A stretch of DNA of 64,000 bases from an uncultured Methanosarcinales archaeon (GCA_964344285.1 CAYFMM010000003.1:67072-131071); one strand, 5' to 3'. Numbered from the stretch's first letter, positions 4,953 through 51,180 are shown. Notes: generated by a model from the letters alone, not told the origin. Numbers and translations are program-made.

Positions 4953-5003
4953 TTGATATCTTTTTTAATTATGTTTTTTTAATTTAATAAACCTCATTTG
5001 ATT

Positions 5004-9267: not shown

Positions 9268-9333
9268 TTGAAATTTATTTGAAATTTATTTGAAAGTCAT
9301 TGTAAAGTCTAACAAGGTTAAATTACAAAGCGA
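9268..9333. repeat. short tandem direct repeat (ATTTGAAATTT unit, about 2.5 copies) in the intergenic spacer
   Basis: The sequence ttgaaatttatttgaaatttatttgaaagtc lies between the PseC-like stop and the PseB-like start. Confidence 0.4.
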
Positions 9334-13684: not shown

Positions 13685-15055
13685 ATGGAACAAAGAAAAG
13701 CTATGATTGTAGGATTAGTATTGTTTATGTGTGGTGCAGTTATTTTTTATTTTAAAGGAATTGTGTGGGCGGCAGGATACATTCTTTCATTATTCATATT
13801 AGAAGCGATTACATATCTTACCTTAGTGCGTTTGCGTAAAAGATCTCCTTTGTTTATTATGCCCAAAGATAAAGCTCCAGAGCTTTCAAAAAAGGGCTTA
13901 CAAAAATTCTTCAAGCAAGGATATGATTCAAAGTTAGGTTGGATTCGTAAGCCGAATACAAACAAAGAAGAAAAGAGTAGTTTTGGAACCACAGCATATT
14001 TGATTAACCAGAAAGGTGCAAGAAGCAACTTAGAGCATGAAACATTACCCCTAAAAATATCTTGTTATGGCGATTCTTTTACTTTTTGCAGACAGGTTAA
14101 TGATAATCAGACATGGGAATGGTTCCTCTCAGAGCTAACACAAAGCAATGTTGCAAATTTTGGAGTAGGAAATTATGGTATTGACCAAGCACTTTTACGT
14201 TTGAAAAGAGAATATGAAAAGAATCCCACTAAAATTGTTGTGATGGGAGTAGTTCCTTCAACTATTGTTCGAATTTTATCTGTGTGGAAACATTATCATG
14301 AATACGGAAACACATTTGGATTTAAACCTTTTTTTAGAATAGAGAAAGGAAAATTAAAATACTACGCAAATAGAATAGATAATGAAGATAAATTCTTAAC
14401 ATACAAAAAAGAAATACCTTTTTTCAAAAAGCACGATTATTTTTACAAAAATAAGTTTTCTAAAGAATTATTTGAGTTCCCTTTTTTTGTATCTATGCTA
14501 AGTAACCCTATCCGTAATATTCCTTTAATTACTTCATTTTTGCTGTTTAAGAATAATGGAAATAAAAATGGAAATAAGAATGAAAGCAAGGAAGAAAAAG
14601 AGGTGGTTTATGGAAAAGGAAAAAAGCAGAGCGATAAAAAAAGAGATGGAAAAGATGTAATGATACAAAAATTGCAAAAGATTAAAGACAGATTTTTGCA
14701 TCCTGTAAAAGTTTCATTGTTTAGCAAAGACAAACCAGTAGAATTGTTAAAAGCGTTGACTCAAGAATTTTTTTCTTATGCTCAAGAGAAATCATTTACC
14801 CCCATCCTGTTATGGATACCACAAAAAGACGATATAGAATATATTAAGCGTAGAGGTGTGTATTATGAAGATTACATTAAAGAGTTTTCTAAAGAATTTA
14901 CTGTTGTTGATATGACTAAAACATTAGTTAATTCAAATAATGTAGAAAACCTTTTTACAGAAGACTCTAGTGACGGGGGCCATTTAAGTGAAGAAGGTAA
15001 CAAAGTTGTTGCAAATGAGTTGTTTAAGGCAATATCAGCGCTTAAGACGCCGTAG
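13685..15055 (+). CDS. membrane-anchored SGNH/GDSL hydrolase-like protein
   Basis: N-terminal TM helices followed by a GDSL block I (CYGDSFTF). Carries a Lys/Asn-rich insert (KNNGNKNGNKNESKEEKE). Confidence 0.4.
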   Translation: MEQRKAMIVGLVLFMCGAVIFYFKGIVWAAGYILSLFILEAITYLTLVRLRKRSPLFIMPKDKAPELSKKGLQKFFKQGYDSKLGWIRKPNTNKEEKSSFGTTAYLINQKGARSNLEHETLPLKISCYGDSFTFCRQVNDNQTWEWFLSELTQSNVANFGVGNYGIDQALLRLKREYEKNPTKIVVMGVVPSTIVRILSVWKHYHEYGNTFGFKPFFRIEKGKLKYYANRIDNEDKFLTYKKEIPFFKKHDYFYKNKFSKELFEFPFFVSMLSNPIRNIPLITSFLLFKNNGNKNGNKNESKEEKEVVYGKGKKQSDKKRDGKDVMIQKLQKIKDRFLHPVKVSLFSKDKPVELLKALTQEFFSYAQEKSFTPILLWIPQKDDIEYIKRRGVYYEDYIKEFSKEFTVVDMTKTLVNSNNVENLFTEDSSDGGHLSEEGNKVVANELFKAISALKTP

Positions 15056-16519
15056 TTTTTTTTGTATTTCAAACAGGTTGAATGCACCAAAAAGATATGC
15101 AAGTAAAAAATAAAACAAAGTTGCAACAAATCCTGCAATAAAGAATTCCATCCACATATTTAGAGAAATTGAGTTTTGTATAAAATACGCTACTGCAAGA
15201 AAACTTATTCCAGGAAAAACTATTTTTAGCCATTGTTTGATTGGAAATTTCATTTTTAAGATATGGGTAATGTGTCGAGTGGAATCAAGGAGGATGTACA
15301 AATAGCTAGCAGAAGTTGCAAAGGCTGCTCCTTCTATTCCGTAAAAAGGGATAAGAGCAAAATTTAAGCCTACATTGATTAAAACTGCAACAAAAACCAT
15401 CTTTGATACTAATTGCGGCTTTCCCATCCCTAAAAGGATATTGTTATTCATCATTGCGACGATATAAAATAATGTGCCGACCAAAACAATTTGAAAGGTT
15501 ATATCTCCAGATGCATAGGCAGCTCCAAAAAACACGGTGATTAAAAATCTTGCAAAGACAAAAGTAATTCCCAAAAGAGGGATGATTAAGATAAATATGT
15601 AACGGTGAATTAAGCCCACTCCTTCTGCAAGCCTTTGTGTATCATTCTTCGACCACAATTCAGAAGACATAGGAAAAGCAATAGAGCTTACTGCTCTGCC
15701 AAGGAAAAAAAACATTAAGGCTGAAGGGAGAACTGCATTATAAATACCCACATCACTAAGAGAAACAAAGTAGGTTAAAATAATTGTATCTGCATAACCA
15801 ATAATTCTCCCGCCTACTACTGTTGCAAAAGAATGTACGCCAAAAGAAAGGAGTTCTTTAGAACGTAACATAAAGTGAGTCATTTTATGTTTAAATGGAT
15901 TAAATAGTCTAAATGCAAAGGGAAGGTATACAAGAAACATCAAAAAGGCTGAAAAGAAGTAAGCATAGGCTGGTGCAATTTGAAGAGGAGTAATCTTAAC
16001 AAAGAGAAGAATACCAATAAAAACAAAAAGGTTTTTTGCAAGTTCCATTGAAGAATAAAGAAGCATTTTCTGATAGCCTTGAAATATGCCTTTGAGAATT
16101 CTAAAGAAGATACTAAAGAAAACATAGAAAATTAAAATACGTAAAATAGGAATAGAACCAGGGTCTGCAAAGTAGTGAACGGAGAGGAATTTTGAGAAGA
16201 CTATAAAGAGAATTGCAAGGATACAAGAACCCAAAATCTCAAGTGAAAGAACAGACACAATAATTGTCTTAATGGAATTATAATCTTTTTTGGATTGATA
16301 ATGAGACATGTATTTTACAAGAGCTTCTTGTAGCCCTAAATCACGCAAGAATAAGAAGAAAAGAACGAATGTAAGGACAGAATAAAATAATCCAAATTCA
16401 GAAGTGTCAAGAGTCCTAGCTAAGACTAAACGAACTAAATAACCTACAAGAGCTGCAAACATACCCATAATAAACGAAGCTCCTGCTCCCTTGACTGCTT
16501 TTTTAAGATATTGTGCCAC
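15035..16519 (-). CDS. polysaccharide biosynthesis protein / oligosaccharide flippase (Wzx, MOP superfamily)
   Basis: 494 aa with about 12-14 predicted TM helices. The layout is typical of Wzx-like flippases in glycan clusters. Confidence 0.6.
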   Translation of the reverse strand: MAQYLKKAVKGAGASFIMGMFAALVGYLVRLVLARTLDTSEFGLFYSVLTFVLFFLFLRDLGLQEALVKYMSHYQSKKDYNSIKTIIVSVLSLEILGSCILAILFIVFSKFLSVHYFADPGSIPILRILIFYVFFSIFFRILKGIFQGYQKMLLYSSMELAKNLFVFIGILLFVKITPLQIAPAYAYFFSAFLMFLVYLPFAFRLFNPFKHKMTHFMLRSKELLSFGVHSFATVVGGRIIGYADTIILTYFVSLSDVGIYNAVLPSALMFFFLGRAVSSIAFPMSSELWSKNDTQRLAEGVGLIHRYIFILIIPLLGITFVFARFLITVFFGAAYASGDITFQIVLVGTLFYIVAMMNNNILLGMGKPQLVSKMVFVAVLINVGLNFALIPFYGIEGAAFATSASYLYILLDSTRHITHILKMKFPIKQWLKIVFPGISFLAVAYFIQNSISLNMWMEFFIAGFVATLFYFLLAYLFGAFNLFEIQKKLRRLKR

Positions 16520-34120: not shown

Positions 34121-34136
34121 TTTTAAGGTATATAAA
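34121..34136 (+). promoter_or_regulatory. candidate archaeal TATA box (TTTTAAGGTATATAAA)
   Basis: A strong TATA-like octamer directly abuts the first in-frame ATG of the following ORF. This suggests the true start is the downstream Met at 34211. It lies in a divergent intergenic region. Confidence 0.3.
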
Positions 34137-34210
34137 TGTTATGGTCTAGTAATCACTTCCAAGGAGTTCCTAAAGAAAGTTTTTTAAAATATGTCTCTTT
34201 TGAGCGACGT

Positions 34211-35578: not shown

Positions 35579-36382
35579 ATGAAAGTAATTATTTTAGCAG
35601 CAGGAAGAGGTTCTAGATTAAGCAAGTACACAGAGGTTTTACCAAAAGGCATGTTGCCATTAGCAGGCAAGCCGTTGCTTCAAAGACAGATTGAAACATT
35701 ACGCAAAACAGGGATTACTGACATTTCAGTTGTGCGAGGATATAATAAAGACAAAATTAGTTTTGATGATGTGAAATATTATGAGAGTCCACAATGGGCA
35801 AGTACTGGACCAGTTGTATCATTATTTTGTGCAGAAAAAGAATTTGATGGATCAGATGATATTTTAGTGTCATACGCAGATTCAATTCAAGAACCACGAA
35901 TTTTAAAACAAATTATGGAAGAACGATTCCCATTAAGTAAGGCAATTGACACTGATTACAAAGATTATTGGACAGCACGAAATGGATCATGGAAAGAAGA
36001 TTCTGAGTCATGTACTCTTCGAGAGAATGGGTCTATTGTCGAGATAGGAGAAGATGGTGTAACAGACGAAGCAAGGCTACATGGAAGAGACGCAAGTTTA
36101 ACTTTTATCTCCAAAGAAATGGCTCCAAAAGTGCTTGAATTATACAAAAAAATGGCACAAGAACATTGGGACACTCCAATCGTTGATGGAAAAGGCGTAA
36201 GTCAGTTTAATATGACAAATTTATTACAGTCTTGGATTGATAATGGGTGGACTGTGATGGCTAATAAAATTCAACGTGGTTGGATGGAATTTGATACAAA
36301 CGCAGATTATGAAAATGCATTAGCATGGCATAAATCTGGTAAAATCAAAGAATTTATTGATTTAGACTTAACACAAGAATAA
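35579..36382 (+). CDS. nucleotidyltransferase (LicC-like CTP:phospho-alcohol / sugar-phosphate cytidylyltransferase family)
   Basis: N-terminus MKVIILAAGRGSRLSKYTEVLPKGMLPLAGKPLL matches the NTP_transferase signature (GxGxRL...PK). Confidence 0.6.
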   Translation: MKVIILAAGRGSRLSKYTEVLPKGMLPLAGKPLLQRQIETLRKTGITDISVVRGYNKDKISFDDVKYYESPQWASTGPVVSLFCAEKEFDGSDDILVSYADSIQEPRILKQIMEERFPLSKAIDTDYKDYWTARNGSWKEDSESCTLRENGSIVEIGEDGVTDEARLHGRDASLTFISKEMAPKVLELYKKMAQEHWDTPIVDGKGVSQFNMTNLLQSWIDNGWTVMANKIQRGWMEFDTNADYENALAWHKSGKIKEFIDLDLTQE

Positions 36383-36467: not shown

Positions 36468-37205
36468 ATGAAAGTTGGATTTACATGTAGACAAACTATA
36501 ATGGAAGGTCGTGGAAACATGACCGAAGTAGAAGGAGAATATATGCAATATTATCCCCGTTTTGGTATTTACCTTGTACTTCTTACACCAGAGATGTTAG
36601 ATATTGAAGGCAATCCTGATTTTTTAGAAAAACAGATTAAAGAATTAGGAATTGAAGGGTTTATCATTGGAGGAGGAAATGGAGTTGATCCAAAGCTATG
36701 GGGAGAAGAAAAAGAATACGAAAATAGATGGTCGGATCCTCGACAAAGATTAAATGAATGGGTATTAGACTACGCAACAAAAAACAAAATGCCGGTATTA
36801 GGAGTTTGTACAGGACTACATGCAATGAATGTTTTTTATGAAGGAAAATTAGTGCAAAACATTCCTGGACAGACAGAGAGCACAATAATTCATTCTCCTG
36901 GTAATGGAAACCCACATACGCCGCACGAAATTACGTTGTCAGGGAAGGCTGTAGAATATTTTGGGTCTGATGTAGTACAAGTCAATTCATATCATAGCCA
37001 AGGAATTGTAGGAGATATGGTAGGTAAAGGGTTGCAACCCTGGGCAAGTTGTGCGGACGACACTGTAGAAGCTGTATACCATACAGAATTACCTATGGCA
37101 GGAATTACCTGGCACCCAGAGCGTGATTATGCGTCTCCAGACAAAGTATTTAATGAGAAATTAGTAAAAGCCTTTGTGAACAGAGAATTATTTTGGAAGA
37201 AGTAA
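36468..37205 (+). CDS. class I glutamine amidotransferase-like / peptidase C26 (gamma-glutamyl hydrolase, PuuD-like)
   Basis: Nucleophile elbow LGVCTGLH and a C-terminal His region (GITWHPE). Confidence 0.55.
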   Translation: MKVGFTCRQTIMEGRGNMTEVEGEYMQYYPRFGIYLVLLTPEMLDIEGNPDFLEKQIKELGIEGFIIGGGNGVDPKLWGEEKEYENRWSDPRQRLNEWVLDYATKNKMPVLGVCTGLHAMNVFYEGKLVQNIPGQTESTIIHSPGNGNPHTPHEITLSGKAVEYFGSDVVQVNSYHSQGIVGDMVGKGLQPWASCADDTVEAVYHTELPMAGITWHPERDYASPDKVFNEKLVKAFVNRELFWKK

Positions 37206-38456: not shown

Positions 38457-39278
38457 ATGAATCCATTCAAAATCATACGTACATATGGGATTAAAAGTAT
38501 TATTCAAAATATTTTCTCGTTAATGATTAGTGATGTTCATGTAGTGTCATTTGAGAAATGTGGCAGGACATGGCTTCGAGTGATGATTGCAAAGTTAATT
38601 GCAAAAAAACTAAAGAAAAAGAGATTAAATTTAGATACACAATTTATGACGTTAGGAAAAGCATTTCCAAATATTGTATTTTCACATGCAGGAGGAAATC
38701 AACTAAATAACAAGATTAATTTTAAGAAACTTTTCAAGAATAAAAAAATTATTTTTTTGGTACGTGATCCTAGAGATTTGATTGTGTCATTATATCACGA
38801 GTATACAAAGCGAAGAAAAATTTATGCAGGAAGTATTGCAGATTTTATACACGACAAGAAATATGGCATACACGCTCCAATTAAGTTTATGAATTATTGG
38901 GCAAAGGAAATGGAAAAAAGACCCCAAGATTTTTTATTAATTAGATTTGAAGATTTAAAAGATAATACGCAAAAAGAATTGCAACGGATTGTTGATTTTT
39001 TAGGTGTTAAAATCAACCAAGATATAATCCAAAAAGCAGTTGATTTTGGTTCTATGGAAAATATGCGCAGATTAGAACAAAGTAATGTTCTTAAAGATGC
39101 AAGACTAGCTCCTGTAGATAAAAAAGATCCTAATTCATACAAAGTTCGCAAAGGTAAAAAAGGAGGTTTTAAAGAGGAATTATCCTCCAAAGATATTGCT
39201 TTTGTAGAGGATTATATTAGAGATCATCTTACATTAAATCTAGAGTATTCAAAGAAATCCGACACCTCCGCAGACTAG
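38457..39278 (+). CDS. sulfotransferase family protein (PAPS-dependent)
   Basis: 5-prime PSB-like motif FEKCGRTWL and 3-prime PB motif FLVRDPRDLIVSLYH. Confidence 0.65.
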   Translation: MNPFKIIRTYGIKSIIQNIFSLMISDVHVVSFEKCGRTWLRVMIAKLIAKKLKKKRLNLDTQFMTLGKAFPNIVFSHAGGNQLNNKINFKKLFKNKKIIFLVRDPRDLIVSLYHEYTKRRKIYAGSIADFIHDKKYGIHAPIKFMNYWAKEMEKRPQDFLLIRFEDLKDNTQKELQRIVDFLGVKINQDIIQKAVDFGSMENMRRLEQSNVLKDARLAPVDKKDPNSYKVRKGKKGGFKEELSSKDIAFVEDYIRDHLTLNLEYSKKSDTSAD

Positions 39279-39415
39279 TGCATACCAGCTTGACCGGATT
39301 TCTGACGTTGCTCTTTTCCAAAAGATGATTAACTTGTATTTACATCTCGTGGCAAGAGCAACTTCTAGAAGATAGTACCATTACCTTTATAAGGGGAAAT
39401 TTTGCCATATTCTAC

Positions 39416-40210
39416 ATGAATTATTCTCGTGAGTTAGAACTTGCAAAGCAAGCTGCTGTAGAGGCTGGAAAGAGAGTTATGGAATATTATGATTCCAATA
39501 ATGCTAGTGTATATTCTAAAGAAGATAAAAGTCCTTGCACGGCAGCAGACCTTGCAGCAAATGAAATTATTGTTAAAAAAATTAAAGAAGAATTTTCAGA
39601 AGATGGAATTTTAACCGAGGAAGCAAAAGACGACTTAACTCGATTACAAAGAAGTAGAGTCTGGGTTATTGATCCATTAGATGGAACAAAAGAATTTATT
39701 TCACATAATGGAGAATTTACAGTAAATATTGCATTGGTTGAGAACAATGAACCTGTAATTGGCGTTATCTATGTTCCTGCACTAAAAGAATTATTTTATG
39801 GTTCTAAGGAGGGGAGTTTTGTAGAAAAAGACGGAGTTGTGCAAAAATTACAAGTTTCAACACGTTCAAATTTGAATGAAATGATCTTGGTAAAAAGTAG
39901 ATCTCATAGTTCTGCAAAAGAGGCACAATTAGAAACTCAATTTGCAGAGACTAAAGTGAGTGGAAGTTCTCTAAAAGGGTGTCGCATTGCTCAAGGTAGA
40001 GCTGATGTGTATTATAGATTTGGCCCAACTCATGAATGGGATATTTGCGCTATGAGTTGTATTCTTGCGTTTGCAGGAGGAGTTATGACTACTTTAGAAG
40101 GGAAATCTTTAAGATTCAACCAAGAGCAGACACTAATACAAGGTTTTGTAACATCAAACAATACAATTCATGAAAAGTTAGTAAATCTTAGCGAGGTACA
40201 AAATGGATAG
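39416..40210 (+). CDS. cysQ: 3-prime(2-prime),5-prime-bisphosphate nucleotidase (CysQ / inositol monophosphatase family)
   Basis: IMPase motifs WVIDPLDGTKEF and the later WDICA. Confidence 0.7.
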   Translation: MNYSRELELAKQAAVEAGKRVMEYYDSNNASVYSKEDKSPCTAADLAANEIIVKKIKEEFSEDGILTEEAKDDLTRLQRSRVWVIDPLDGTKEFISHNGEFTVNIALVENNEPVIGVIYVPALKELFYGSKEGSFVEKDGVVQKLQVSTRSNLNEMILVKSRSHSSAKEAQLETQFAETKVSGSSLKGCRIAQGRADVYYRFGPTHEWDICAMSCILAFAGGVMTTLEGKSLRFNQEQTLIQGFVTSNNTIHEKLVNLSEVQNG

Positions 40211-41006
40211 ATTAGATATGTTAGAAGCTCAGGCGATTTATGTTTTGCGAGAAGCATACAAGAAATTTGGAAAGTTAGGCATGTTATGGTCTATGGGAAA
40301 AGATTCAACTGTAATGTTATGGCTTGCAAAAAAAGCATTTTTAGGACATGTGCCTTTTCCGTGCATCCATATTGATACAACTTTCAAGTTTCCAGCAATG
40401 TACGAATATCGAAGTAAGATAGCAAAAGAATGGAATCTTAACTTGCTAATTGGAAAGAATGAAGAAGCACTCGCAAATGGTGTAAATTATGATAATTATC
40501 CTGCTCTTAAGGTTTGTGAAGAACTAAAAACAAATGCATTAAAGCAATTTGTTGAAAAGAATAAGTTTGAAGGTTTAATTTTAGCAATTAGATCAGATGA
40601 AGAGGGTTCACGTTCTAAAGAAAGGTTTTTTAGTAAAAGGAACGCTGATTTTGAATGGGATTATACTGACCAACCTCCTGAATTGTGGGATCAATTTAAT
40701 ACAGATTATAATAAAGAAGAACATATTAGAGTACATCCTATTTTGCATTGGACAGAACTTGATGTGTGGGAATATGTTAAACGGGAGAAAATTCCTTTAA
40801 TTGATTTATACTATGCAAAAGATGGGAAGAGATATAGAAGCTTAGGGTGTATGCCAATTACTCATCCAATCGATTCAAATGCACAAACTGTTGATGAAAT
40901 TATCGAAGAATTAAAACAAACAAAGGTCTCAGAAAGAGAGGGTAGAGGTCAAGATAAAGAAGATAAGTATGCACTACAAAAGTTAAGAGCAAAGGGGTAT
41001 ATGTAA
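40203..41006 (+). CDS. cysD: sulfate adenylyltransferase subunit 2
   Basis: PAPS-reductase-fold motif LWSMGKDSTVMLWLAKKAF. 8-nt overlap with the cysQ-like gene. Confidence 0.85.
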   Translation: MDRLDMLEAQAIYVLREAYKKFGKLGMLWSMGKDSTVMLWLAKKAFLGHVPFPCIHIDTTFKFPAMYEYRSKIAKEWNLNLLIGKNEEALANGVNYDNYPALKVCEELKTNALKQFVEKNKFEGLILAIRSDEEGSRSKERFFSKRNADFEWDYTDQPPELWDQFNTDYNKEEHIRVHPILHWTELDVWEYVKREKIPLIDLYYAKDGKRYRSLGCMPITHPIDSNAQTVDEIIEELKQTKVSEREGRGQDKEDKYALQKLRAKGYM

Positions 41007-41007
41007 A

Positions 41008-41214
41008 ATGGTTACAGAAAAAAAGAAACGAAGTATTGCAAAGGCGCTGAGTTGGAGAGTTACAGCAACATTAATTACAACAGTTCTTGTTTTTATATTT
41101 ACAGGTCAGTTTACATTAGCAATCTCAGTGGGGGTTGTTGAAGTCTTATTGAAAATGCTAGCGTATTATGCGCATGAACGTTCATGGGACAAAATTAACT
41201 GGGGGAGATTTTAA
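41008..41214 (+). CDS. small two-helix membrane protein (DUF2061-like) inside the cys operon
   Basis: 68 aa with two hydrophobic helices, tightly packed between cysD and cysN with overlapping stop and start. Confidence 0.4.
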
Positions 41215-43085
41215 TGGATAAGGCACTCAAATTTGTTGTAGTAGGTCACGTAGATCATGGAAAATCAACATTAATTGGTAGACTATTAGCAGATACAAAC
41301 TCAGTCATGGATGGTGTTTTAACAAAAGTAAAAAATACATGTCAGGAGAAAGGCATTGAATTTGAGTATGCATTTTTGCTAGATGCATTTCAAGAAGAAC
41401 AAGAACAAGGGATTACAATTGATACTACAAAGATTGAATTTTCAACAGATAAAAGAGATTACACTATTATTGATGCTCCAGGACATAAGGAATTTCTAAA
41501 AAACATGGTTAGCGGTGCTTCTAGTGCAGAAGCTGCATTATTAATTATTGATGCTAAAGAAGGTGTAAGAGAGCAATCAAAAAAACATGCATATATTTTG
41601 TCCTTAATTGGGGTAAAACAAATTTATGTGATTATTAATAAAATTGACTTAGTTCAATATTCTCAAGAACGCTTTAACGAAGTGAAATTTGAGATGGATG
41701 CATATTTACGCAAGCTTGGAATAGAAGCTCAAAAATTCATCCCTATTTCTGCTAAGTTAGGAGATAATGTTGCGATGAGTTCCTCTAATCTTGCATGGTA
41801 TCAAGGAGAAACTGTTTTAGCTGCAATTGATAATTTTACAAAGAGTGAAGAGATGCATGACAAACCATTACGAGTTCCTGTGCAGGATGTGTATAAATTT
41901 GATGCACGTAGAATTATTGCAGGAAGAGTAGAAAGCGGTTCAATTAAAATTGGAGATAAAATCACGTTATATCCCTCATTAAATACTACAACAGTTAAGT
42001 CTATTGAAGAATGGAAAGTTCAGACTGAGAGTAATCAAAAGAAAGCTGGAGATTGTGTAGGGTTAACGTTTAATGATGAATTCTTTTTGCAAAGAGGCGA
42101 GGTTATTGCAAGAGCTGATGAAAAACCAAGAGTACGCAATTTATTGCATTGTAATTTTTTCTGGATGGGTAAAGAAGATCTTGCCATTGGTAAAAAGTAT
42201 AAATTAAAGCTTAATACACAAGAAGTAGAATGCGAGATCCACACAATTAATAGTGTTGTTGACTCCAATACTCTTGAAAAAATTCCCGGTAAGCATTCGT
42301 TATCTAAGAATGATGTAGGAAATTTAGTTATTAAAACAAAACAACCAGTTGTATTTGATGCATTTTCTGAGATTCCAACTACAGGAAGATTTGTGCTCGT
42401 AGATAATAATATTGTGTGTGGCGGAGGTATCATTGAGAATACAAGTAATGAATTGCAACAACGTGAAGTTGTAGAAACTAAAAGTGAATTAGTATCTCCA
42501 AAACAAGGTATGGTGTCTAATCTTGAGAGAGAAAAACGCCAAGGCCACCGAGGAAAAGTAGTGTGGATTACAGGACTTTTAGGAAGCGGAAAGGAAAAAA
42601 TTGCCCAATATGTTGAGCGAGAGTTGTTTGATAAAAGGATGGGCGTGTATTACCTTGATGCAGGAAATATTCGTTTTGGGTTGAGTTCCAACCTAGATTA
42701 TAGTGAGGAATCTCGTAAAGAGCATGTGCGAAGGATTGCTGAAACTGCAAACTTATTTGTGCAAGCAGGATTAATAGTTGTAGTTTCTGTTGTAAGCCCA
42801 TATAAAGAACATCGGGCCCTTGCAAGACAACTTATTGGAGAGAATAATTTCATGGAAGTATTTGTTGATGCTCCAATAGAAGTATGTAAGCAAAATAACC
42901 CACATGGCATTTATTCTTCTGCAGATCAAGGAAAGATCTCAAGTGTTCCTGGAGTCAATTTCCCTTATGAAAGATCAGATTATTTGATTTATACATTAGG
43001 GATTAACTCTAGTGAGGATAATTTGCAAGAAAAAGCAAAACAATTAGTAGATTTAGTTTGTAAAGATGTTACCAAACAAGATTAA
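41214..43085 (+). CDS. cysN: sulfate adenylyltransferase subunit 1 (GTPase) fused to a C-terminal APS-kinase-like domain
   Basis: EF-Tu-like GTPase motifs [12 protein letters not shown] and DAPGH. The C-terminal ~180 aa are APS kinase-like, but the P-loop reads GLLGSGKE (no Ser/Thr after GK). Confidence 0.85.
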
Positions 43086-43671
43086 TGCAACAAACATAAC
43101 GTGGCACAAAGAGGCTGTTACAAGAGAAGATCGCAGGACACTTCTTGGAGTTAAAAACAAGGTAGTGTGGTTTACTGGACTTTCAGGTTCAGGAAAATCC
43201 ACGTTAGCAAGAGAAGTTGAAAAAGGTTTACATCAGCAAGGTGTCTTGTGTTATGTGTTGGATGGCGATAATATTAGACATGGATTAAATCAAGATTTAG
43301 GTTTTTCTAAAGAAGAACGAGATGAAAACATTAGAAGAATTGCAGAAGTGAGCAAATTACTATACGAAGCTGGTGTTGTTGTATTAGTAAGTTTTATTAG
43401 CCCTTATAGAAAAATGCGTGATTTTGCAAGAAACTTAATTGGAGAAGATTTTGTTGAAGTGTTTGTTGATTGCCCTATTGAAGAATGTCAAAAAAGAGAT
43501 GTTAAAGGATTATATCAAAAAGCGTTGGCAGGGGAGATTACAGGATTTACAGGAGTTGATGATCCATATGAAAAACCAGAGAATGCCCAGATTACAGTTG
43601 AGACTTCTAAACTTTCTATTTCCAAGGCAAAGGACAAAATAGTTAGTTATCTGCTTTCTTTAAACGCATAA
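43066..43671 (+). CDS. cysC: adenylylsulfate (APS) kinase
   Basis: Canonical P-loop [16 protein letters not shown] and downstream APS kinase motifs. Confidence 0.85.
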
Positions 43672-44350
43672 ATTGAGAGATTAATTTTCTACAGAGTTCT
43701 AAGAAGAAAAAGAGTGCATAAATGAGAAGCGTGTAGTGTGCATATCCAAATAGTACTCCCCAAAACATAAAGTTAAAGATATATTCTAGGCGTAAGAATG
43801 CAAAGATGTTGTAAAGAAAATTTTTTTGATTTACAAGTAAGGAACCTTGCAGACAATGAGCTACTTTTTCTTGTTGTTCTTGTGAACCATACCACTGAGG
43901 GTTTAAGGTGAGTGCTTTATTGAGCAAGAAACTAAAAACAGCTATTGCACCAGCAAGTAAGTAGAGTGGATTTTGCTGGATTTTATATACACCAATAGTC
44001 AAGCTTACAAGTAGCGTAGGGTTTGCAATGTAATGACCGATATAATCAAGATAAATTCCGTTTAAAGAAAATATTTTTTTGTATCTTGCAACAATACCGT
44101 CTGTACAATCAATGATAAAGAATGCTTGGAAGAAAAATAGGCCTAAAACCATTTTGTGCCACTGCCCCGTTGCTAGGAATAGAGCAGAGACAATTTGGCC
44201 AAGAATCCAAATTACTGTTATTTGATTTGGCGTAAGCCTTGTCTTTACAAGAAGCTTAGCAGGATAAAACCCAAGATGATCTACCAAGCGGTAGAAGATG
44301 TCTCTTCGGTTACTTGAGGCAACTTGTTTAAGCTCTTTAATTGTAGGCAT
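43643..44350 (-). CDS. CDP-alcohol phosphatidyltransferase family membrane protein
   Basis: Motif DCTDGIVARYK...G.YLDYIGH within a polytopic membrane protein. Confidence 0.55.
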   Translation of the reverse strand: MPTIKELKQVASSNRRDIFYRLVDHLGFYPAKLLVKTRLTPNQITVIWILGQIVSALFLATGQWHKMVLGLFFFQAFFIIDCTDGIVARYKKIFSLNGIYLDYIGHYIANPTLLVSLTIGVYKIQQNPLYLLAGAIAVFSFLLNKALTLNPQWYGSQEQQEKVAHCLQGSLLVNQKNFLYNIFAFLRLEYIFNFMFWGVLFGYAHYTLLIYALFFFLELCRKLISQFMRLKKADN

Positions 44351-44379
44351 CTACCCTTTAAGATATAATGCGGTTATAA

Positions 44380-45528
44380 ATGTTTCCGAAGATTGTTCTC
44401 ATTTGTATACGCCATCACAATAGATTAAATACAATCTTATTTCCAGAAGTTTTAAAAGCAGAGTTGAGCTCAAGAGAAGATATGAATATTGCAATTGATA
44501 TTTGGCACCCTTCAGACATCCATTTTTTTAAGAATTTTATTGCAATTATGAAGGAAAAGGGCCACAAGATTCTTGTTACTTCAAGAAAAAAAGATATCAT
44601 TACAGATTTATTAGATAGTTATAAGATCGAACATGTTGTTGCTAGTAGAAAAGGAGAAGGATTCTTTGGCTTGGCTCGAGAGTTGTTAGAACATAATTAC
44701 AAGTTATTCAAAGCAGCAAGAAAATTTAAACCAGATATTTTTCTAGCATTTGGGGGGATGAGTATCTCTCATGTGGGAACATTAATGAGAAAGCCTTCAA
44801 TTAGTTTTTATGATACCGAACATGCAAGCTTAATCAAGTTTGTTACACTTCCGTTTATTACAAAAGTATGTACTCCAGAATGTTATTTAGATAATTATGG
44901 GAAAAAACAAATTCGGTTTAAGGCATATAAGGAGATGGCACATTTAACGCCAAAATATTTTACTCCAGACCCGTCTATTTTAGAAACACTTGGTGTAAAA
45001 AAAGGAGAACCTTATTTTTTAATTCGCTATATTTCATGGAATGCAAGTCATGATATTGGAGTAAATGGATTATCAGATCAGGCAAAAATTAAGTTAGTGG
45101 AGATGTTAGAAAAACATGGCAAGGTGTTTGTGTCTGCTGAAGAGAATATTATTCCAAAAGAGATTGCAGATAGGGTGATTAAGATAGATCCTAAAAAGTA
45201 TTTTGACATATTGCATTTTGCAAAGATGGTAATTACAGAAGGTGAGACTACTGCAACAGAAGCTGTATTATTAGGGACTCCTGCTGTATACGCAAACCCT
45301 CTACTTACAGGAGTGATGAAAGAACAAATTGAAAAGTACAAGATTGTAGAACACGCAGTAGGGCAAAAAGCCGTGTTTGCTAAAGTTCAAGAGATGTTAG
45401 AAAATAAGGGTTTGCAAGAGAATCTTGAGAAAAAAAGAGATCAGTTACTTGCAGATAAAATTGATTTGACAAAATGGATGGTAGAATATGTAAGTTCTTT
45501 TGACGTACGTATTAAGTCAAGTGAGTGA
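44380..45528 (+). CDS. GT-B-like protein of uncertain function (resembles archaeal DUF354-type glycosyltransferase-like proteins)
   Basis: 382 aa with Rossmann-like alternation (IAIDIWHPSDIHFF...ILVTSRKKD). No definitive motif. Confidence 0.3.
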   Translation: MFPKIVLICIRHHNRLNTILFPEVLKAELSSREDMNIAIDIWHPSDIHFFKNFIAIMKEKGHKILVTSRKKDIITDLLDSYKIEHVVASRKGEGFFGLARELLEHNYKLFKAARKFKPDIFLAFGGMSISHVGTLMRKPSISFYDTEHASLIKFVTLPFITKVCTPECYLDNYGKKQIRFKAYKEMAHLTPKYFTPDPSILETLGVKKGEPYFLIRYISWNASHDIGVNGLSDQAKIKLVEMLEKHGKVFVSAEENIIPKEIADRVIKIDPKKYFDILHFAKMVITEGETTATEAVLLGTPAVYANPLLTGVMKEQIEKYKIVEHAVGQKAVFAKVQEMLENKGLQENLEKKRDQLLADKIDLTKWMVEYVSSFDVRIKSSE

Positions 45529-45674
45529 GTAGCGCCCATCGAGGTGCATTACGTGCTAGATGGAAACTAAGTAAAAAGACGTAATAAGGGGCACCGTGCC
45601 CTGCTCACAGGAACGGACTTAATATTACCTTTTGACAAAAGTCATAAATAATGCGAATTAGAATTGGAAGAGAT

Positions 45675-46232
45675 TTATTTCCCAGAGCAAAGTTTAAGCA
45701 ACATTTTCTTACGTGTGTGATTAATTGAATCCAAAAGTTCTGTTGAGTTTACAGATTCATTTTTTGCAATAAATTCATCAATTGTTGTAATTTGTTTTGC
45801 AGGGTTACCTGCAACAATTGTATTTTTGGGTACTGATTTTGTGACTACAGAACCAGCTCCCACAATAGCATTTGGGCCAATTGTTACACCTGGCAAGATG
45901 ATAGAATCAGTTCCAATAAAAGAATTATCATGAATTGTAATACGTCCTAATTTAGGATTTAATTTTTTTTTCAAGCCTTTGCTAAGCATATGAATTGAAC
46001 CATCATGTGTTAAAAGTCGTACTCCTCTTGTTAGCCAAACATTATTACCTAGAGAGATTAATTCTGGTTCACTGCCAAAAAAAATATTGCGGGCAACAGA
46101 GCAATTTTTGCCGATACTCTTAATAAGTTTCATCTTTCTAATCAAATTAGCTCGCTTTGTATTACTCATTACAAGAGAGATTCTAATTAGTTTGAGCATC
46201 TTTTTTAGCCTTCTAAGAGTGTATTTAATCAT
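45675..46232 (-). CDS. hexapeptide-repeat O-acetyltransferase (maltose/galactoside acetyltransferase-like)
   Basis: LbH repeats and a C-terminal IVAGNPAKQI. Start placed at the internal Met MIKYTLRRL, because the long N-terminal extension in the ORF track is hydrophobic and overlaps the divergent gene. Confidence 0.6.
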   Translation of the reverse strand: MIKYTLRRLKKMLKLIRISLVMSNTKRANLIRKMKLIKSIGKNCSVARNIFFGSEPELISLGNNVWLTRGVRLLTHDGSIHMLSKGLKKKLNPKLGRITIHDNSFIGTDSIILPGVTIGPNAIVGAGSVVTKSVPKNTIVAGNPAKQITTIDEFIAKNESVNSTELLDSINHTRKKMLLKLCSGK

Positions 46233-46358
46233 ACCACAGATAAGAGACAATTTCTTTTTAAAGATTATGGAGGGAATAGGCTTCATCTGGGAAGGAGTAA
46301 TATCCCTTAAATTATAGGGAATTAAGACGTAAAAAACACAAATAATAAAAATGCAGAG

Positions 46359-46880
46359 TTGAGAGTAAGTAATATGCGAAAAGAAGAACAACATTTACGT
46401 AAAATTAATCTTGGTTGCGGCACTGATTATAGAGAAGGGTTTATCAATGTAGAAAATAGCCCATTTGTCAAAAAAGACGTTGAATGTGACTTAAATAAAT
46501 ATCCTTATCCTTTTGATGATGAGAGTATTGATGAAGTACATGCATATGCAGTAATGGAAAATTTAGACGATATAGTCAAGTTTATGGATGAAGTTTATCG
46601 GATATTAAAGCCAGGAGGGATGTTAAAGTTTAGATCTGCTTTAGCATTTACATATGTTGATGCAAAAGATCCCACTCACAAACAGCATTTTATCCCCGGA
46701 ACGTTTAATTTATGGCTCAAGGGATTTAATGATCAAAAGATTAGTAAAACTCAATTTAAAGGAAAGTTATGGGTAACAATTCCTTTCTTTCATAAACTAC
46801 GTTTTCCAGCAAGCCTACATATTTTAAATTCTTTTGTTAACAACATTTTTACGGGGATCGAAGGAGAATTTATCAAATAA
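46359..46880 (+). CDS. class I SAM-dependent methyltransferase
   Basis: Motif I INLGCGTDY and motif post-I LKPGGMLKF. Confidence 0.6.
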   Translation: MRVSNMRKEEQHLRKINLGCGTDYREGFINVENSPFVKKDVECDLNKYPYPFDDESIDEVHAYAVMENLDDIVKFMDEVYRILKPGGMLKFRSALAFTYVDAKDPTHKQHFIPGTFNLWLKGFNDQKISKTQFKGKLWVTIPFFHKLRFPASLHILNSFVNNIFTGIEGEFIK

Positions 46881-46918
46881 AGTGTATAGAGTTTAAAGAG
46901 ATTTAGAAAGATTAAATA

Positions 46919-47860
46919 TTGACAATGAAGAAAACTAATCTGTTTATTGTAGGAGCGCCAAAATCTGGCACAACAACAATGTTTGAGTTGTTAAAGCAAC
47001 ATCCGGATATTTTTGCACCAGAGAATCGTGAGCCTAATTTTTTTTGTCAAGATATTAACAGATCTGTGTTAAAATATCAGAAGGTACGTTTTTACAATCG
47101 TTGGTTTTATAGAACATATGTTGAGAAATTAGAAGAATACAAAAATATTTTTAATAAATGGGGAGATGAGAAATATGCACTAGATGGGTCATCAGGGAGA
47201 TATTTATATTCTAAAGAAGCTGCACAAGAGATTGCAGAATTTAATTCTGATGCTAAGGTTTTAATTATGATTCGTAACCCCATTGACTTTTTACGTTCCC
47301 TACATTCACATTTTGTTACGCATTTTAGCGAGGACATTGTTGATTTTAAAAAAGCTCTTGAAGCTGAGAAAGAGCGTAAACAAGGAAGAAAAATTCCAAA
47401 AGGTTCTAAGTGTCCTGCACAACAGTTTTATTCAGAGATCTCAAAGTTTAGTGAACAGATTACACGTTTTAAGAAATATTTCCCAGAAGAGCAAGTTAAG
47501 ATTATTATTTTAGATGATTTTAAAGATGATATGCAAAAAGTTTTCCAAGAAGTTCTTGATTTTTTAGGTATTAATGTCACACAAGAAATCAATTATGAGA
47601 TTAAGAATGTGAATAAAAAAGTAAGTTCAAAGTGGATGGGTAAATTTCTTGTTACATATCCTTTTGTTTGGAAGTTTTGTAAGAAGATCCTTCCAATAAG
47701 TGTATATCAAAAAATCCGTAATAAAGTTATTAAGCCACAAAAAAGAGAAAAATTAGACGTTGATTTTAGAAAAGAATTAGAGCAAAGGTTTAAAGAAGAA
47801 GTTGAAAGTTTGAGCAAGATTACAAAAAGAGATTTACTTTCACTTTGGGGTTTTACATAG
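46919..47860 (+). CDS. sulfotransferase family protein (PAPS-dependent)
   Basis: 5-prime PSB motif VGAPKSGTTTM and 3-prime PB region MIRNPIDFLRSLHSH. Confidence 0.7.
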   Translation: MTMKKTNLFIVGAPKSGTTTMFELLKQHPDIFAPENREPNFFCQDINRSVLKYQKVRFYNRWFYRTYVEKLEEYKNIFNKWGDEKYALDGSSGRYLYSKEAAQEIAEFNSDAKVLIMIRNPIDFLRSLHSHFVTHFSEDIVDFKKALEAEKERKQGRKIPKGSKCPAQQFYSEISKFSEQITRFKKYFPEEQVKIIILDDFKDDMQKVFQEVLDFLGINVTQEINYEIKNVNKKVSSKWMGKFLVTYPFVWKFCKKILPISVYQKIRNKVIKPQKREKLDVDFRKELEQRFKEEVESLSKITKRDLLSLWGFT

Positions 47861-47931: not shown

Positions 47932-49263
47932 TTAATTTCTGCCAATACCATAATAGGTAAAGCCTTGCTGTTTTACATGAGAAGGGTTAAAGATATTTCT
48001 ACCATCAAAGACTACCTGGTGCTGCATTTGTTTTGCTAATTCTGCAAAGTTAATATTTCTAAACTCATCCCACTCTGTTGCAAGAATTAATGCAGAGCTT
48101 TGCTCAGCTGCTTTTTGAACTGTTGTGTGGTAATGAAGATTTTCTGTGTTAGGGAAGGCTAGTTTAATTTCTTCCATTGCAACAGGATCATAAACATGAA
48201 CAGCTGCACCTTGTTGTAACAAGTGTTTGATTAAATGCAGAGATGGAGCTTGGCGTATATCACTTGTTTTTGGTTTAAAGGATAAACCTAAAAGAGTAAA
48301 TCTTTTGCCTTGTAAGTTATGGTTAAAGTGTAGATTTATTTTATCTACAAGAATTTTTTTTTGACGTTCATTTAAGGAGTGTACTTCTTGTAATAATGTA
48401 GCGTTATACCCTTTCTCTTTGGCAGTTTGAATTAATGCTTGAACATCTTTTGGAAAGCAACTTCCCCCATAACCTATGCCTGCGTTCAAGAATTTAGGAC
48501 TAATTCTGTAGTCCATTCCAAGGCCTGTGGCAACTGTTTTAATGTCTGCACCTATTTTGTCAGCGATATTTGCAATTTCATTAATGAAACTAATTTTTGT
48601 TGCTAAGAAAGCATTGTTTGCATATTTCATTAACTCAGAGGTCTGCCAGTCAGTTTCAAGAATATTCATGTAAGGCCTTATGAACCCAGAATAAAGATCA
48701 TGCATAACTGCAAAAGCTTTTTGTGATTTTGCTCCAACTACAATCTTATCTGGGTGAGAAAAGTCATGCACTGCACTTCCTTCTTTAAGAAACTCAGGAT
48801 TTGATACCACATCAACGACAATATCTTTTGTAACATCTTCTCGCTGTTGTAGTTTTGCTAAGATGATCTCTTGACATTTTTGTGCTGTTCCTGCTGGAAC
48901 TGTGCTTTTGTTGATTAAGACTGTATATCCTTTTGCGTATTGGGCAATAGTTTCTGCTACAGTATATACAAAAGTTAAATCTGCAGAACCATCTTGCTTG
49001 CTTGGCGTACCTACACAATTAAAAATAACATCACTTTGTTTAATTACATCTGGTGCCTTTGTAGTAAATTGTAATCTTCCTTTTGCAACATTTCTTGTTA
49101 CAACGTCACGAAGCCCTGGTTCATAAAAAGGGATTCTTCCTTCTCGAAGGAGGTGAATTTTTTGTTCATCAATATCAACACAAACAACATTATGTCCTAA
49201 ATCAGCAAGACATGCTCCTGTGACAAGTCCCACGTATCCTGTGCCAAAACAACTAATGTTCAT
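47932..49263 (-). CDS. UDP-sugar 6-dehydrogenase (UDP-glucose/GDP-mannose dehydrogenase family; WbpA/WecC-like)
   Basis: N-terminal Rossmann motif ISCFGTGYVGLVTGACLA and the catalytic Cys region GGSCFPKD. Confidence 0.85.
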   Translation of the reverse strand: MNISCFGTGYVGLVTGACLADLGHNVVCVDIDEQKIHLLREGRIPFYEPGLRDVVTRNVAKGRLQFTTKAPDVIKQSDVIFNCVGTPSKQDGSADLTFVYTVAETIAQYAKGYTVLINKSTVPAGTAQKCQEIILAKLQQREDVTKDIVVDVVSNPEFLKEGSAVHDFSHPDKIVVGAKSQKAFAVMHDLYSGFIRPYMNILETDWQTSELMKYANNAFLATKISFINEIANIADKIGADIKTVATGLGMDYRISPKFLNAGIGYGGSCFPKDVQALIQTAKEKGYNATLLQEVHSLNERQKKILVDKINLHFNHNLQGKRFTLLGLSFKPKTSDIRQAPSLHLIKHLLQQGAAVHVYDPVAMEEIKLAFPNTENLHYHTTVQKAAEQSSALILATEWDEFRNINFAELAKQMQHQVVFDGRNIFNPSHVKQQGFTYYGIGRN

Positions 49264-50009
49264 TGTTCCTCCTTAGAAGTTTGTTCAAACAAGCTTCTTG
49301 CTTCTTCTAGTTTTTCAAAGCTACCTATGTCAAACCAGTATTCATCAAAAATAAAGCCGTGTACTTCTGTGTTTTTTGTAAGATGGATAATTAAGTCACC
49401 AGGGTTGTCAAATATTTGTTGTTGTAAAATAGATTCTATATTATGTAAGTCACTTTTAGAAAAAATGTAGCAGAGGGTACTAGCAAGTGTGCTTTTAGGG
49501 TTAGTGGGTTTTTCTTCAAAGTCAATTATTTTTGTTCCTTTTAAAATCCCTACTCCAAATTTATTACGTACTTCATCAGGATGTTTTAAGTCGCAAAAAG
49601 CAACTATAGAAGTTTGTTGTTGTTTGAAATAATCAGTGAATGATTGTAAAGAAAACCCAAAGAGATTATCTCCGCCAATGACTAAGAGGTCATCATCAAT
49701 TTGTAATTGTTTTATGGCAAAATTAATATCTCCTACTGCCCCAAGTCTATTTTCATTAGAAGTTGTTTGATCGTTAAGAAGTGTAATTGGAGTTGTAAAA
49801 GAAGAAGTTTCTTTCCATTGTATAAAATCAGCATGAAACTTTTCATTTGTGACAACGATTGCTTCTGTAATTTCATGAGAAGCGTCTATTTTTTCCATAA
49901 TATGGTCAAGTATTGGTTTATTTCCTACTTTTAAAAGAGGTTTTGCTGTTTTTTCTGTTAAAGGGTACAATCTTGTGGCAAAACCAGCGCAGAGCACTAA
50001 TACTTTCAT
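49260..50009 (-). CDS. sugar-phosphate nucleotidyltransferase
   Basis: MKVLVLCAGFATRLYPLTEKTAKPLL matches the NTP_transferase signature. Confidence 0.7.
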   Translation of the reverse strand: MKVLVLCAGFATRLYPLTEKTAKPLLKVGNKPILDHIMEKIDASHEITEAIVVTNEKFHADFIQWKETSSFTTPITLLNDQTTSNENRLGAVGDINFAIKQLQIDDDLLVIGGDNLFGFSLQSFTDYFKQQQTSIVAFCDLKHPDEVRNKFGVGILKGTKIIDFEEKPTNPKSTLASTLCYIFSKSDLHNIESILQQQIFDNPGDLIIHLTKNTEVHGFIFDEYWFDIGSFEKLEEARSLFEQTSKEEQ

Positions 50010-50971: not shown

Positions 50972-51086
50972 AGGTGGACAGCTAACCAAGTTTCCCGCGT
51001 AATGCAGTACACCAAGGAACGGAAGCGCGCTTAACTTCTGTGTTCGAAAAGGGAACAGGTGAACCACGCCCCTATGGCCGTCCAAT
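50972..51086 (-). rRNA. rrf: 5S ribosomal RNA (boundaries approximate)
   Basis: The minus strand reads TGGACGGCCATAGGGGCGTGGTTCACCTGTTCCCTTTTCGAACACAGAAGTTAAGCGCGC...GCTGTCCACC. This carries the universal 5S loop C and helix III motif (CCGAACAC.GAAGTTAAGC). The 5-prime GGACGGC pairs with the 3-prime GCTGTCC as helix I. It is a GC-rich island in AT-rich surroundings. Confidence 0.75.
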
Positions 51087-51180
51087 AAGCTTATTTATAC
51101 AGGTTATTTATAAAGTTTTCCACCCTAAATACGTTATTTCCTTCACAATCCTTATTAAGAGAGATTCTCTTTTAGAGAAT

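Follow-up and report, generated by a model that had tools for sequence, protein, structure and literature searches.

The 64,000-nucleotide stretch CAYFMM010000003.1:67072-131071 (assembly GCA_964344285.1), deposited as an uncultured Methanosarcinales archaeon and here called the window, contains a compact set of genes for the activation and transfer of sulfate at positions 38457-47860. The set comprises two putative sulfotransferases, ST1 and ST2, that depend on 3'-phosphoadenosine 5'-phosphosulfate (PAPS), the sulfate donor in universal use. It also comprises the predicted ATP sulfurylase subunits CysD and CysN, the adenosine 5'-phosphosulfate (APS) kinase CysC, and a CysQ-like phosphatase for the by-product 3'-phosphoadenosine 5'-phosphate (PAP). 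These genes lie in a glycan island that spans 1-50 kb of the window. They most likely form a dedicated sulfation module of a DPANN archaeon, in all likelihood for surface glycans, a reading to which a probability of roughly 75 % is given. The genes of the cassette and its immediate neighbours, with the best family matches, are the following (TM, transmembrane; SAM, S-adenosylmethionine; OST, O-sulfotransferase; NDST, N-deacetylase/N-sulfotransferase).

38457..39278, + strand: ST1, predicted cytosolic-SULT-like PAPS-dependent sulfotransferase, 273 aa (Pfam Sulfotransfer_1, E 4e-24)
39416..40210, + strand: CysQ-like 3'(2'),5'-bisphosphate nucleotidase, predicted to convert PAP to AMP and Pi (Inositol_P, E 9e-57)
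40203..41006, + strand: CysD, small (catalytic) subunit of ATP sulfurylase (PRK05253, 356.5 bits, cut-off 195)
41008..41214, + strand: DUF2061 protein, 68 aa, two predicted TM helices (PF09834)
41214..43085, + strand: CysN-psiAPSK fusion, whole gene (TIGR02034 and PF01583)
41214..42488, + strand: CysN GTPase part of the fusion, about residues 1-425 (TIGR02034, 360.5 bits, cut-off 336.1)
42489..43085, + strand: psiAPSK, degenerate APS-kinase-like domain at the C-terminus of CysN (PF01583 at residues 446-587)
43066..43671, + strand: CysC, canonical stand-alone APS kinase (TIGR00455, 253 bits, cut-off 138.7)
43643..44350, - strand: divergent CDP-alcohol phosphotransferase, 4 TM segments (PF01066, E 2e-7)
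44380..45528, + strand: DUF354 protein, likely a GT-B-type glycan enzyme (PF04007, E 1.5e-21)
45675..46199, - strand: hexapeptide-repeat acetyltransferase, called gene 174 aa, reading frame extending to 46394 (Hexapep, E 8e-11; WbbJ/NeuD-like matches)
46374..46880, + strand: small class-I SAM methyltransferase (Methyltransf_11, E 3e-10)
46925..47860, + strand: ST2, predicted heparan-sulfate-OST/NDST-like PAPS-dependent sulfotransferase, 311 aa (Sulfotransfer_3/1, E 1e-13)
47932-49263, - strand: UDP-glucose 6-dehydrogenase (UDPG_MGDP_dh domains, TuaD/AglM models)
49260-50009, - strand: sugar-1-phosphate nucleotidyltransferase (NTP_transferase, E 1e-33)

The genes were identified from a listing of open reading frames (ORFs) and by Pfam and NCBIfam profile searches with curated bit-score cut-offs. 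Every gene named in a first-pass annotation of the window was recovered in its place, and the profile searches confirm a Sulfotransfer domain in both ST1 and ST2. That annotation put a sulfotransferase last in the contiguous set, but ST1 is the first gene and lies upstream of cysQ. Its listing of cysQ, cysD, cysN and cysC is right as to the genes, but the DUF2061 gene between cysD and cysN had been overlooked. In the same way, CysN is indeed fused to an APS-kinase-like domain, but the degeneration of this domain had gone unnoticed. The PAPS genes are tightly packed, with an overlap of 8 nt between cysQ and cysD and one of 20 nt between cysN and cysC. The gap between ST1 and cysQ is 137 nt long and holds a TATA-like TTTATAA box. 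Such boxes, recognised by eye only, are located about 25-30 nt 5' of the start codons of both ST1 and cysQ. The true start of ST2 is the ATG at 46925, and its neighbours are a methyltransferase, an acetyltransferase, UDP-glucose dehydrogenase and a nucleotidyltransferase. The last two are predicted to supply a hexuronic acid precursor. The DUF354 protein has weak matches to NCBIfam models of surface-carbohydrate biosynthesis.

All five genes of PAPS metabolism score above or near the curated cut-offs of their families. The CysQ-like protein carries the DPLDGT and WD motifs, and its score against the CysQ model TIGR01331 (216.4 bits, cut-off 228.8) is far above those for HisN (158) and SuhB (70). 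CysD has the PP-loop SMGKDS. The GTPase motifs of CysN are intact, namely G1 GHVDHGKS, G3 DAPG and G4 NKID ([12 protein letters not shown]). CysC keeps the P-loop, the LDGD motif and the lid lysine ([19 protein letters not shown] and VKGLY). The DUF2061 gene is wedged between cysD and cysN also in a Woesearchaeota locus (L089, 9798-10004), and its small membrane protein could anchor the sulfate-activating complex at the membrane.

The C-terminal domain of CysN departs from active APS kinases at the positions that matter. Compared with Mycobacterium tuberculosis CysC (4bzp), GKS is replaced by GKE, LDGD by LDAG (Asp480 to Gly), and the lid motif KGLY by HGIY (Lys562 to His). In the M. tuberculosis enzyme, Ser458 binds the beta-phosphate, Lys562 stabilises the transition state, and Asp480, a residue that the mouse enzyme cannot do without, has been proposed as the catalytic base (PMC4373884). 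Since the equivalents of these three residues are gone, the fused domain is predicted to be a non-catalytic pseudo-kinase. Its degeneration explains why a separate canonical cysC follows, and the absent catalytic residues rule out that the fused domain makes cysC redundant. The catalytic aspartate is gone in 85 of the 120 best CysN-APSK proteins, including all the closest ones, with entries from Nanoarchaeia, Woesearchaeota, Clostridium and Natranaerovirga. In the other 35 the domain is of the canonical type, with GLSGAGKST and [10 protein letters not shown]. By sequence, psiAPSK defines a large, widespread clade across DPANN archaea and Clostridia, and no description of it was found in the literature searched. 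Three proteins are triple fusions of CysN, psiAPSK and a true APS kinase (P0251-3; 824-837 aa). Among the loci examined, a stand-alone cysC adjoins the psiAPSK-type cysN in the window, in a Nanoarchaeia locus (L088) and in a Clostridium locus (L093); L089 is the exception. As far as sequence can tell, the triple fusions and the adjoining cysC genes show that the degenerate domain in no case takes the place of the kinase.

APS kinases are dimers, and the APS-kinase-like domain of fungal ATP sulfurylase binds PAPS allosterically. The fungal enzyme (Penicillium chrysogenum, PDB 1i2d/1m8p) likewise comprises a non-catalytic domain of APS-kinase fold on a sulfate activator, with a separate true APS kinase, and psiAPSK matches it at E 1e-20. 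In contrast, the fungal enzyme is a homo-oligomer of the Sat type, whereas in the window the domain belongs to CysN, the GTPase subunit of a heterodimeric enzyme. From the dimeric nature of APS kinases and the fungal analogue, the simplest and most likely inference is that psiAPSK docks CysC onto CysDN or senses APS or PAPS. A CysN pseudo-kinase that acts as a docking or allosteric partner and couples CysC to CysDN would be novel.

ST1 aligns with cytosolic sulfotransferases (SULTs, among them SULT1C2 in the PDB), plant sulfotransferases (SOTs) and StaL/Teg. Its 5'-phosphosulfate loop FEKCGRTW corresponds to YPKAGTTW of SULT1C2. When ST1 is aligned with 24 homologues, K34 of this loop is near-invariant, and G36 and T38 are invariant. 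The 3'-phosphate motif VRDPRDLIVS has R103, D104, P105 and S111 invariant, and in VRKGKKGG, the RKGxxG motif, R231 is invariant and G233 near-invariant. The probable catalytic histidine is H77 (FSHAG), which occurs in most close homologues, though it is not aligned exactly with the histidine of the SULT 'KTH' motif in the phmmer alignment. The AlphaFold (AF2) model of ST1 has a pLDDT of 90.8 and a pTM of 0.88. Its top 50 Foldseek matches in the PDB are all sulfotransferases, nearly all of the cytosolic SULT/SOT type, with a probability of 1.0 and TM-scores of 0.59-0.69.

ST2 matches an Alicyclobacillus sulfotransferase (PDB 3rnl, E 1e-27) and then heparan-sulfate 3-OSTs and NDST. Its motifs are GAPKSGTT (5'-phosphosulfate binding), REPNFF and RNPIDFLRS (3'-phosphate binding). 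REPNFF aligns with AEPHFF of 3-OST-3, the catalytic-Glu motif; in 3-OSTs the glutamate of the (K/R)EPxFF motif is the catalytic residue, as Glu90 in 3-OST-1. Among 40 homologues, taken from a family with over 22,000 cluster representatives, G10 and R117 are invariant, and G15, K35, E36, P119, S125 and H127 near-invariant. The AF2 model has a pLDDT of 92.4, and Foldseek finds 3rnl (E 3e-15) followed only by carbohydrate sulfotransferases, namely 3-OST-1/3/5 and NDST1. With only about 24 % identity across 121 residues, ST1 and ST2 fall into two sequence subfamilies. TM segments are predicted in neither, and no third sulfotransferase was found in the window by phmmer with ST1 and ST2 against all ORFs of at least 60 aa.

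The PAPS-binding residues had been set beforehand as the point on which the assignment of the two sulfotransferases could fall. Both proteins keep them: K34/G36/T38, R103-D104-P105...S111 and R231-K-G233 in ST1, and all three motifs in ST2. Both models match only PAPS-dependent sulfotransferases. This argues for PAPS-dependent sulfate transfer as the predicted activity of ST1 and ST2.

The linkage between sulfotransferase and PAPS genes was compared in two sets of loci. A profile search of genome contigs with the ST1 alignment gave distant ST1-family loci (31-41 % identity), of which the best 80, mostly bacterial, were inspected. Bacterial genomes usually keep cys genes elsewhere, and only 2 of these 80 loci have a PAPS gene within 10 kb, whereas each of the close archaeal orthologue loci (47-53 % identity), which are syntenic islands, has PAPS genes adjoining ST1. 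Because of this difference, the clustering of the sulfotransferase with PAPS genes is not due to chance.

The relatives vary in composition. Locus L085, from the same sequencing project, has ST1, a fusion of pyruvate kinase and the ATP sulfurylase Sat, a CysC-CysQ fusion, a flippase and a second ST1-like sulfotransferase. L087 contains a pyruvate kinase-Sat fusion and a canonical CysC, and further on ST1 and CysQ. In L083, an APS-kinase-family gene overlaps the ST1 orthologue. L088 has an ST2 orthologue (215 bits) convergent to cysQ-cysD-cysN-cysC. L004, from a metagenome-assembled genome (MAG) of Methanosarcinales, comprises an ST1-like gene and CysQ, and further on a CysC-CysQ fusion, together with GT4, carbamoyltransferase and methyltransferase genes. 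In L089, cysQ-cysD-DUF2061-cysN stands beside heptose, glycosyltransferase, flippase and NeuB genes. Orthologues of the CDP-alcohol phosphotransferase lie near ST1 orthologues in L083 (247 bits), L085 and L087. The pyruvate kinase-Sat fusion (758 aa) is located at 10871-13147 in L085 and at 2-1585 in L087, and the APS kinase-CysQ fusion (423-432 aa) at 13179-14450 in L085 and at 14545-15843 in L004.

The ATP sulfurylase has been displaced non-orthologously while the sulfotransferase was kept, CysC and CysQ occur as Rosetta-stone fusions, and a PAP phosphatase is present. These features are classical comparative-genomic evidence for functional coupling, as read from gene sequences. The CysC-CysQ fusions of L085 and L004 support a role of CysQ as PAP phosphatase. 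The earlier claim that sulfate is activated for transfer rather than assimilation gains support from the position of CysQ inside the operon, from the CysC-CysQ fusions beside ST1 orthologues, and from a sulfotransferase-PAPS linkage that outlasts the exchange of the ATP sulfurylase.

The surrounding island contains NeuB, a PseB-like dehydratase, two DegT aminotransferases, a CMP-transferase fusion, GT2 and GT4 glycosyltransferases, two UDP-GlcNAc 2-epimerase homologues, acetyltransferases, UDP-glucose dehydrogenase and a flippase:

15035..16519, - strand: Wzx/MATE-like polysaccharide flippase (Polysacc_synt, E 3e-29)

Flippases also adjoin the ST1 orthologues in L083, L085 and L039. The window encodes, on the same contig, a thermosome subunit (735 bits) and a type II methionine aminopeptidase, and also holds a TrmB regulator, a lone 5S rRNA and tRNA-His. 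The ribosomal proteins L31e, S19e and L35Ae and a Cbf5-like pseudouridine synthase follow within 10 kb downstream. The best thermosome matches that bear names are all from Woesearchaeota, Nanoarchaeota or Nanoarchaeia, with one exception labelled Staskawiczbacteria, and the maximum identity is 71 %. On account of the archaeal markers and these thermosome matches, the host is assigned by sequence to the DPANN archaea, as a Woesearchaeota-like member of a poorly sampled lineage. A bacterial contaminant contig is ruled out by the archaeal housekeeping genes that flank the island and by a uniform GC content of 0.30-0.37. The description of the locus as an archaeal glycan island holds, with archaeal housekeeping genes on the same contig and glycan genes that fill 1-50 kb.

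Several other features of the island and its borders are of interest. A complete-looking gene set for a nonulosonic acid of the pseudaminic or legionaminic type is located at 3861-10350(-). It comprises NeuB with a SAF domain, a 690-aa fusion of CMP-transferase and class-III aminotransferase, an aldo-keto reductase, a DegT aminotransferase and the PseB-like dehydratase. The same glycan may, from these genes, carry a sialic-acid-like sugar besides sulfate. Two proteins of 651 and 587 aa (16961-18916(-) and 18825-20588(-)) have about 9 predicted TM segments each and no Pfam match. They adjoin an LPG_synthase_TM protein. L085 has a PMT_2 (GT-C) protein in the corresponding place, so the pair may serve the island as its polymerase, ligase or transferase for glycans. 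Also inside are a holo-ACP synthase (23302-23721) and a ligase of the acyl-CoA/AMP-forming type (24007-25551); the matching place in L085 is taken by thiolase and short-chain dehydrogenase genes. The synthase and ligase genes hint at an acylated sugar. The isolated 5S rRNA gene (50973-51085(-)) is outside any rRNA operon and overlaps the 5' end of a GTG-started, HAD/PMM-like ORF (51040-51936(+)), the true start of which is probably further downstream. Just outside the island and next to tRNA-His, a 491-aa fusion (58601-60076(-)) combines a PgsA-like CDP-alcohol phosphatidyltransferase with a diacylglycerol/lipid-kinase catalytic domain.

In the proposed pathway, CysD, driven by the GTPase CysN, would form APS from sulfate and ATP. 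The stand-alone CysC, translationally coupled to cysN, would then convert APS to PAPS, while the dead domain fused to CysN would tether CysC to the CysDN complex or sense APS or PAPS. ST1 and ST2, both predicted to be soluble and cytoplasmic, would sulfate two different positions with PAPS as donor. As acceptors they would take glycan precursors, linked to a lipid or a nucleotide, which the island makes and which would be sulfated before export. CysQ would hydrolyse the inhibitory by-product PAP to AMP, and the Wzx-type flippase would export the sulfated product. Agl7 of Haloferax volcanii provides a genetic precedent for a lipid-linked sugar that is sulfated in the cytoplasm and flipped afterwards (PMC3892788). 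As UDP-glucose dehydrogenase adjoins ST2 and the fold of ST2 is of the heparan-sulfate type, the product is guessed to be a sulfated glycan that contains hexuronate or hexosamine.

A number of points weigh against a dedicated surface-sulfation module. The organism is an uncultured MAG. The CysQ-like score is just under the NCBIfam equivalog cut-off, and the likeness of ST1 to small-molecule SULTs leaves room for an acceptor other than a sugar. Profile scans of the window recognised no sulfate transporter, nor did they recognise AglB/STT3, so that the product may be an N-glycan, a polysaccharide or a glycolipid. In L089, neither cysC nor a sulfotransferase was found within 10 kb, and because of this the cassette is not always locally complete. 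In L083, the only adjoining 'PAPS' gene encodes a kinase of the PRK05541 type, and no ATP sulfurylase was found within 10 kb. A CDP-alcohol phosphotransferase and a module that resembles a phosphoramidate pathway likewise accompany ST1 orthologues. The search for reductases covered about 74 kb of the genome only.

This last point bears on ordinary assimilatory sulfate reduction, in which PAPS would serve reductases encoded elsewhere and the sulfotransferases would be incidental neighbours. CysD, CysN and CysC are classical enzymes of assimilation, and most of the genome lies outside the portion inspected. The closest non-archaeal CysN-psiAPSK proteins are clostridial and occur with cysC, cysD, an AprA-like flavoprotein and ferredoxin, which is a reductive context. 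In Marine Group IIb (MGIIb) archaea, cysDN and cysC have been interpreted as assimilatory (PMC6864105). However, no PAPS/APS reductase or sulfite reductase (cysH, sir, asr) was found among ORFs of at least 100 aa in the window or in the 10 kb downstream, and for this portion alone the absence of such reductases claimed in the first-pass annotation is borne out. Two sulfotransferases bracket the operon, CysQ lies within it, the genes sit in a 50-kb glycan island, and the relatives keep PAPS genes with sulfotransferases despite the change to a Sat fusion and the fusion of CysC with CysQ. The position of the operon and its behaviour in relatives thus make a purely assimilatory role very unlikely. 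It is unlikely, to a lesser degree, that PAPS serves sulfation while at least ST1 acts on a lipid head group or a small metabolite. The sequence and fold neighbours of ST1, which are small-molecule SULTs, StaL/Teg and the CurM sulfotransferase, are in line with such an acceptor. So are the two CDP-alcohol phosphotransferases, the LPG_synthase_TM protein, the acyl-CoA ligase and the holo-ACP synthase of the island, and sulfated glycolipids occur in haloarchaea. In contrast, the surrounding genes are overwhelmingly for glycan assembly and include the Wzx-type flippase, ST2 is of the carbohydrate-sulfotransferase type, and glycosyltransferases and flippases adjoin the ST1 orthologues.

A further alternative arises from the genes directly upstream of ST1:

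29742-33302: 1186-aa protein, here called BIG, with an ECT/Fom1-like cytidylyltransferase, PEP-utilizers and PPDK_N domains
33329-34081, - strand: HAD protein
34136-35491: protein without an assigned family
35579-36382: NTP_transf_3 protein
36468-37205: Peptidase_C26 protein

ST1 might act in a pathway of the phosphoramidate type, in which BIG, NTP_transf_3 and C26 would make CDP-amidate and ST1 would use its 3'-phospho form, a PAPS analogue, as donor, and this would also account for the APS-kinase-like genes of some related loci. The best NCBIfam match of the C26 protein is gamma-glutamyl-CDP-amidate hydrolase (NF045546), at 53.7 bits in the window and 104.9 bits for the L083 orthologue. The domain set of BIG resembles the annotation once given to glutamine kinase Cj1418 (PMC10971088). 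In L083 and L085, the ST1 orthologue has both BIG and the CDP-alcohol phosphotransferase in its company, whereas orthologues of C26 and NTP_transf_3 were found only in L083. L087 has the CDP-alcohol phosphotransferase and weaker NTP-transferase relatives, and no BIG orthologue was found there. The 165-aa kinase that overlaps ST1 in L083 (9507-10004) is a far better match to PRK05541 (172 bits) than to TIGR00455 (84 bits). PRK05541 presumably includes Cj1415, and the L083 protein may, with no ATP sulfurylase near it, be a Cj1415-type (CDP-amidate) kinase.

In Campylobacter jejuni, the O-methyl phosphoramidate (MeOPN) pathway Cj1415-Cj1418 shares several enzyme types with these loci, namely a PPDK-like kinase, a cytidylyltransferase, a C26-type hydrolase and an APS-kinase-family kinase in a locus for surface polysaccharide. 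The donor made by this pathway, CDP-phosphoramidate 3'-phosphate (PMC11800397), carries a 3'-phosphate and is an analogue of PAPS. Methanoperedens Borgs have been noted to carry similar genes (bioRxiv 10.1101/2024.11.05.622173). However, every score against the MeOPN models is far under the cut-off of 250. The window has the full sulfate-activation set instead of a distinct Cj1415-type kinase, and profile scans saw no separate kinase of this type there. ST1 directly precedes cysQ-cysD-cysN-cysC, the only kinase predicted to be active is the canonical APS kinase, and the CDP-alcohol phosphotransferase could use a CDP-linked donor without ST1. Because ST1 adjoins a full sulfate-activation operon, and its orthologues in L085 and L087 adjoin ATP sulfurylase, which is specific to sulfate, the gene context argues for the use of sulfate by ST1 in the window. 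A phosphoramidate role for ST1 is therefore quite unlikely. A bolder reading is that two anionic decorations derive from parallel 3'-phospho-nucleotide donors, with the ST1-type fold repurposed for phosphoramidate transfer, its donor made by the Cj1416-1418-like module and an APS-kinase-family kinase, and sulfate activated solely for the surface; this is improbable. The related ST1 locus L087 also encodes a 548-aa fusion of PEP-mutase and NTP_transf_3 (13971-15617(-)) with radical-SAM/B12 enzymes nearby, which suggests that this relative makes a phosphonate decoration. A similar fusion has been reported on Borgs.

A dedicated sulfation module has consequences for how such genes are read. Sulfated glycans are chemically documented in few archaea, which include Halobacterium, Haloferax and Thermoplasma. 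A 2024 review lists archaeal polysaccharide sulfotransferases, including candidates from Woese- and Pacearchaeota, as uncharacterised (PMC11625862), and a relevant description of DPANN sulfotransferases was not found in the literature searched. The locus and its relatives offer two candidate archaeal sulfotransferases with their own PAPS supply and PAP removal. A metagenomic study of DPANN archaea took sulfate adenylyltransferase genes as functions of the sulfur cycle (PMC8091004). In DPANN MAGs, such genes may point to surface decoration rather than to the sulfur cycle or assimilation. A sulfated, nonulosonate-bearing coat could matter for host contact in organisms with very small genomes that live attached to a host.

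The closest known design is that of NodPQ and NodH in Sinorhizobium meliloti, where a dedicated CysD/CysN(-CysC) pair makes PAPS for a co-encoded sulfotransferase that acts on a glycoconjugate and not for cysteine (PMC6192434). Mesorhizobium loti has sulfated surface polysaccharides that depend on nodPQ, which is the same design (PMC1780047). Besides this pair, rhizobia possess a CysDN for housekeeping. The CysC domain of NodQ is active, whereas the fused domain in the window is degenerate and a separate CysC is needed. In addition, the archaeal cassette has CysQ, the DUF2061 membrane peptide and two sulfotransferase subfamilies, and it is chromosomal in a DPANN archaeon.

The capsular polysaccharide (CPS) cluster of Vibrio sp. 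KMM 8419 contains second copies of cysN, cysD and cysC and several sulfotransferases amid polysaccharide genes, and the structure of its sulfated CPS is chemically proven (PMC11641403). Its authors regard co-located cysNDC and sulfotransferase genes as a hallmark of sulfated polysaccharide synthesis (PMC11641403). The Vibrio cluster is bacterial, exports by an ABC transporter (Kps), and has no reported cysQ, whereas the window has Wzx-type export, a PAP phosphatase and a pseudo-kinase CysN. In the low-salt N-glycan pathway of Haloferax volcanii (Agl5-Agl15), sulfation of a DolP-linked hexose depends on Agl7 and takes place in the cytoplasm before flipping (PMC3892788). The gene lies inside the glycosylation cluster, but genes for PAPS synthesis have not been reported there.

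The cassette is less unusual than had been supposed: it recurs in several DPANN MAGs and one Methanosarcinales MAG, and its principle is established in bacteria by NodPQ/NodH and by the Vibrio CPS (PMC11641403). It is an archaeal member of the NodPQ/NodH-type design already known in bacteria. It is set apart from the bacterial examples by its DPANN host, by CysQ and DUF2061, by a pseudo-kinase CysN with a separate CysC, and by two sulfotransferase subfamilies.

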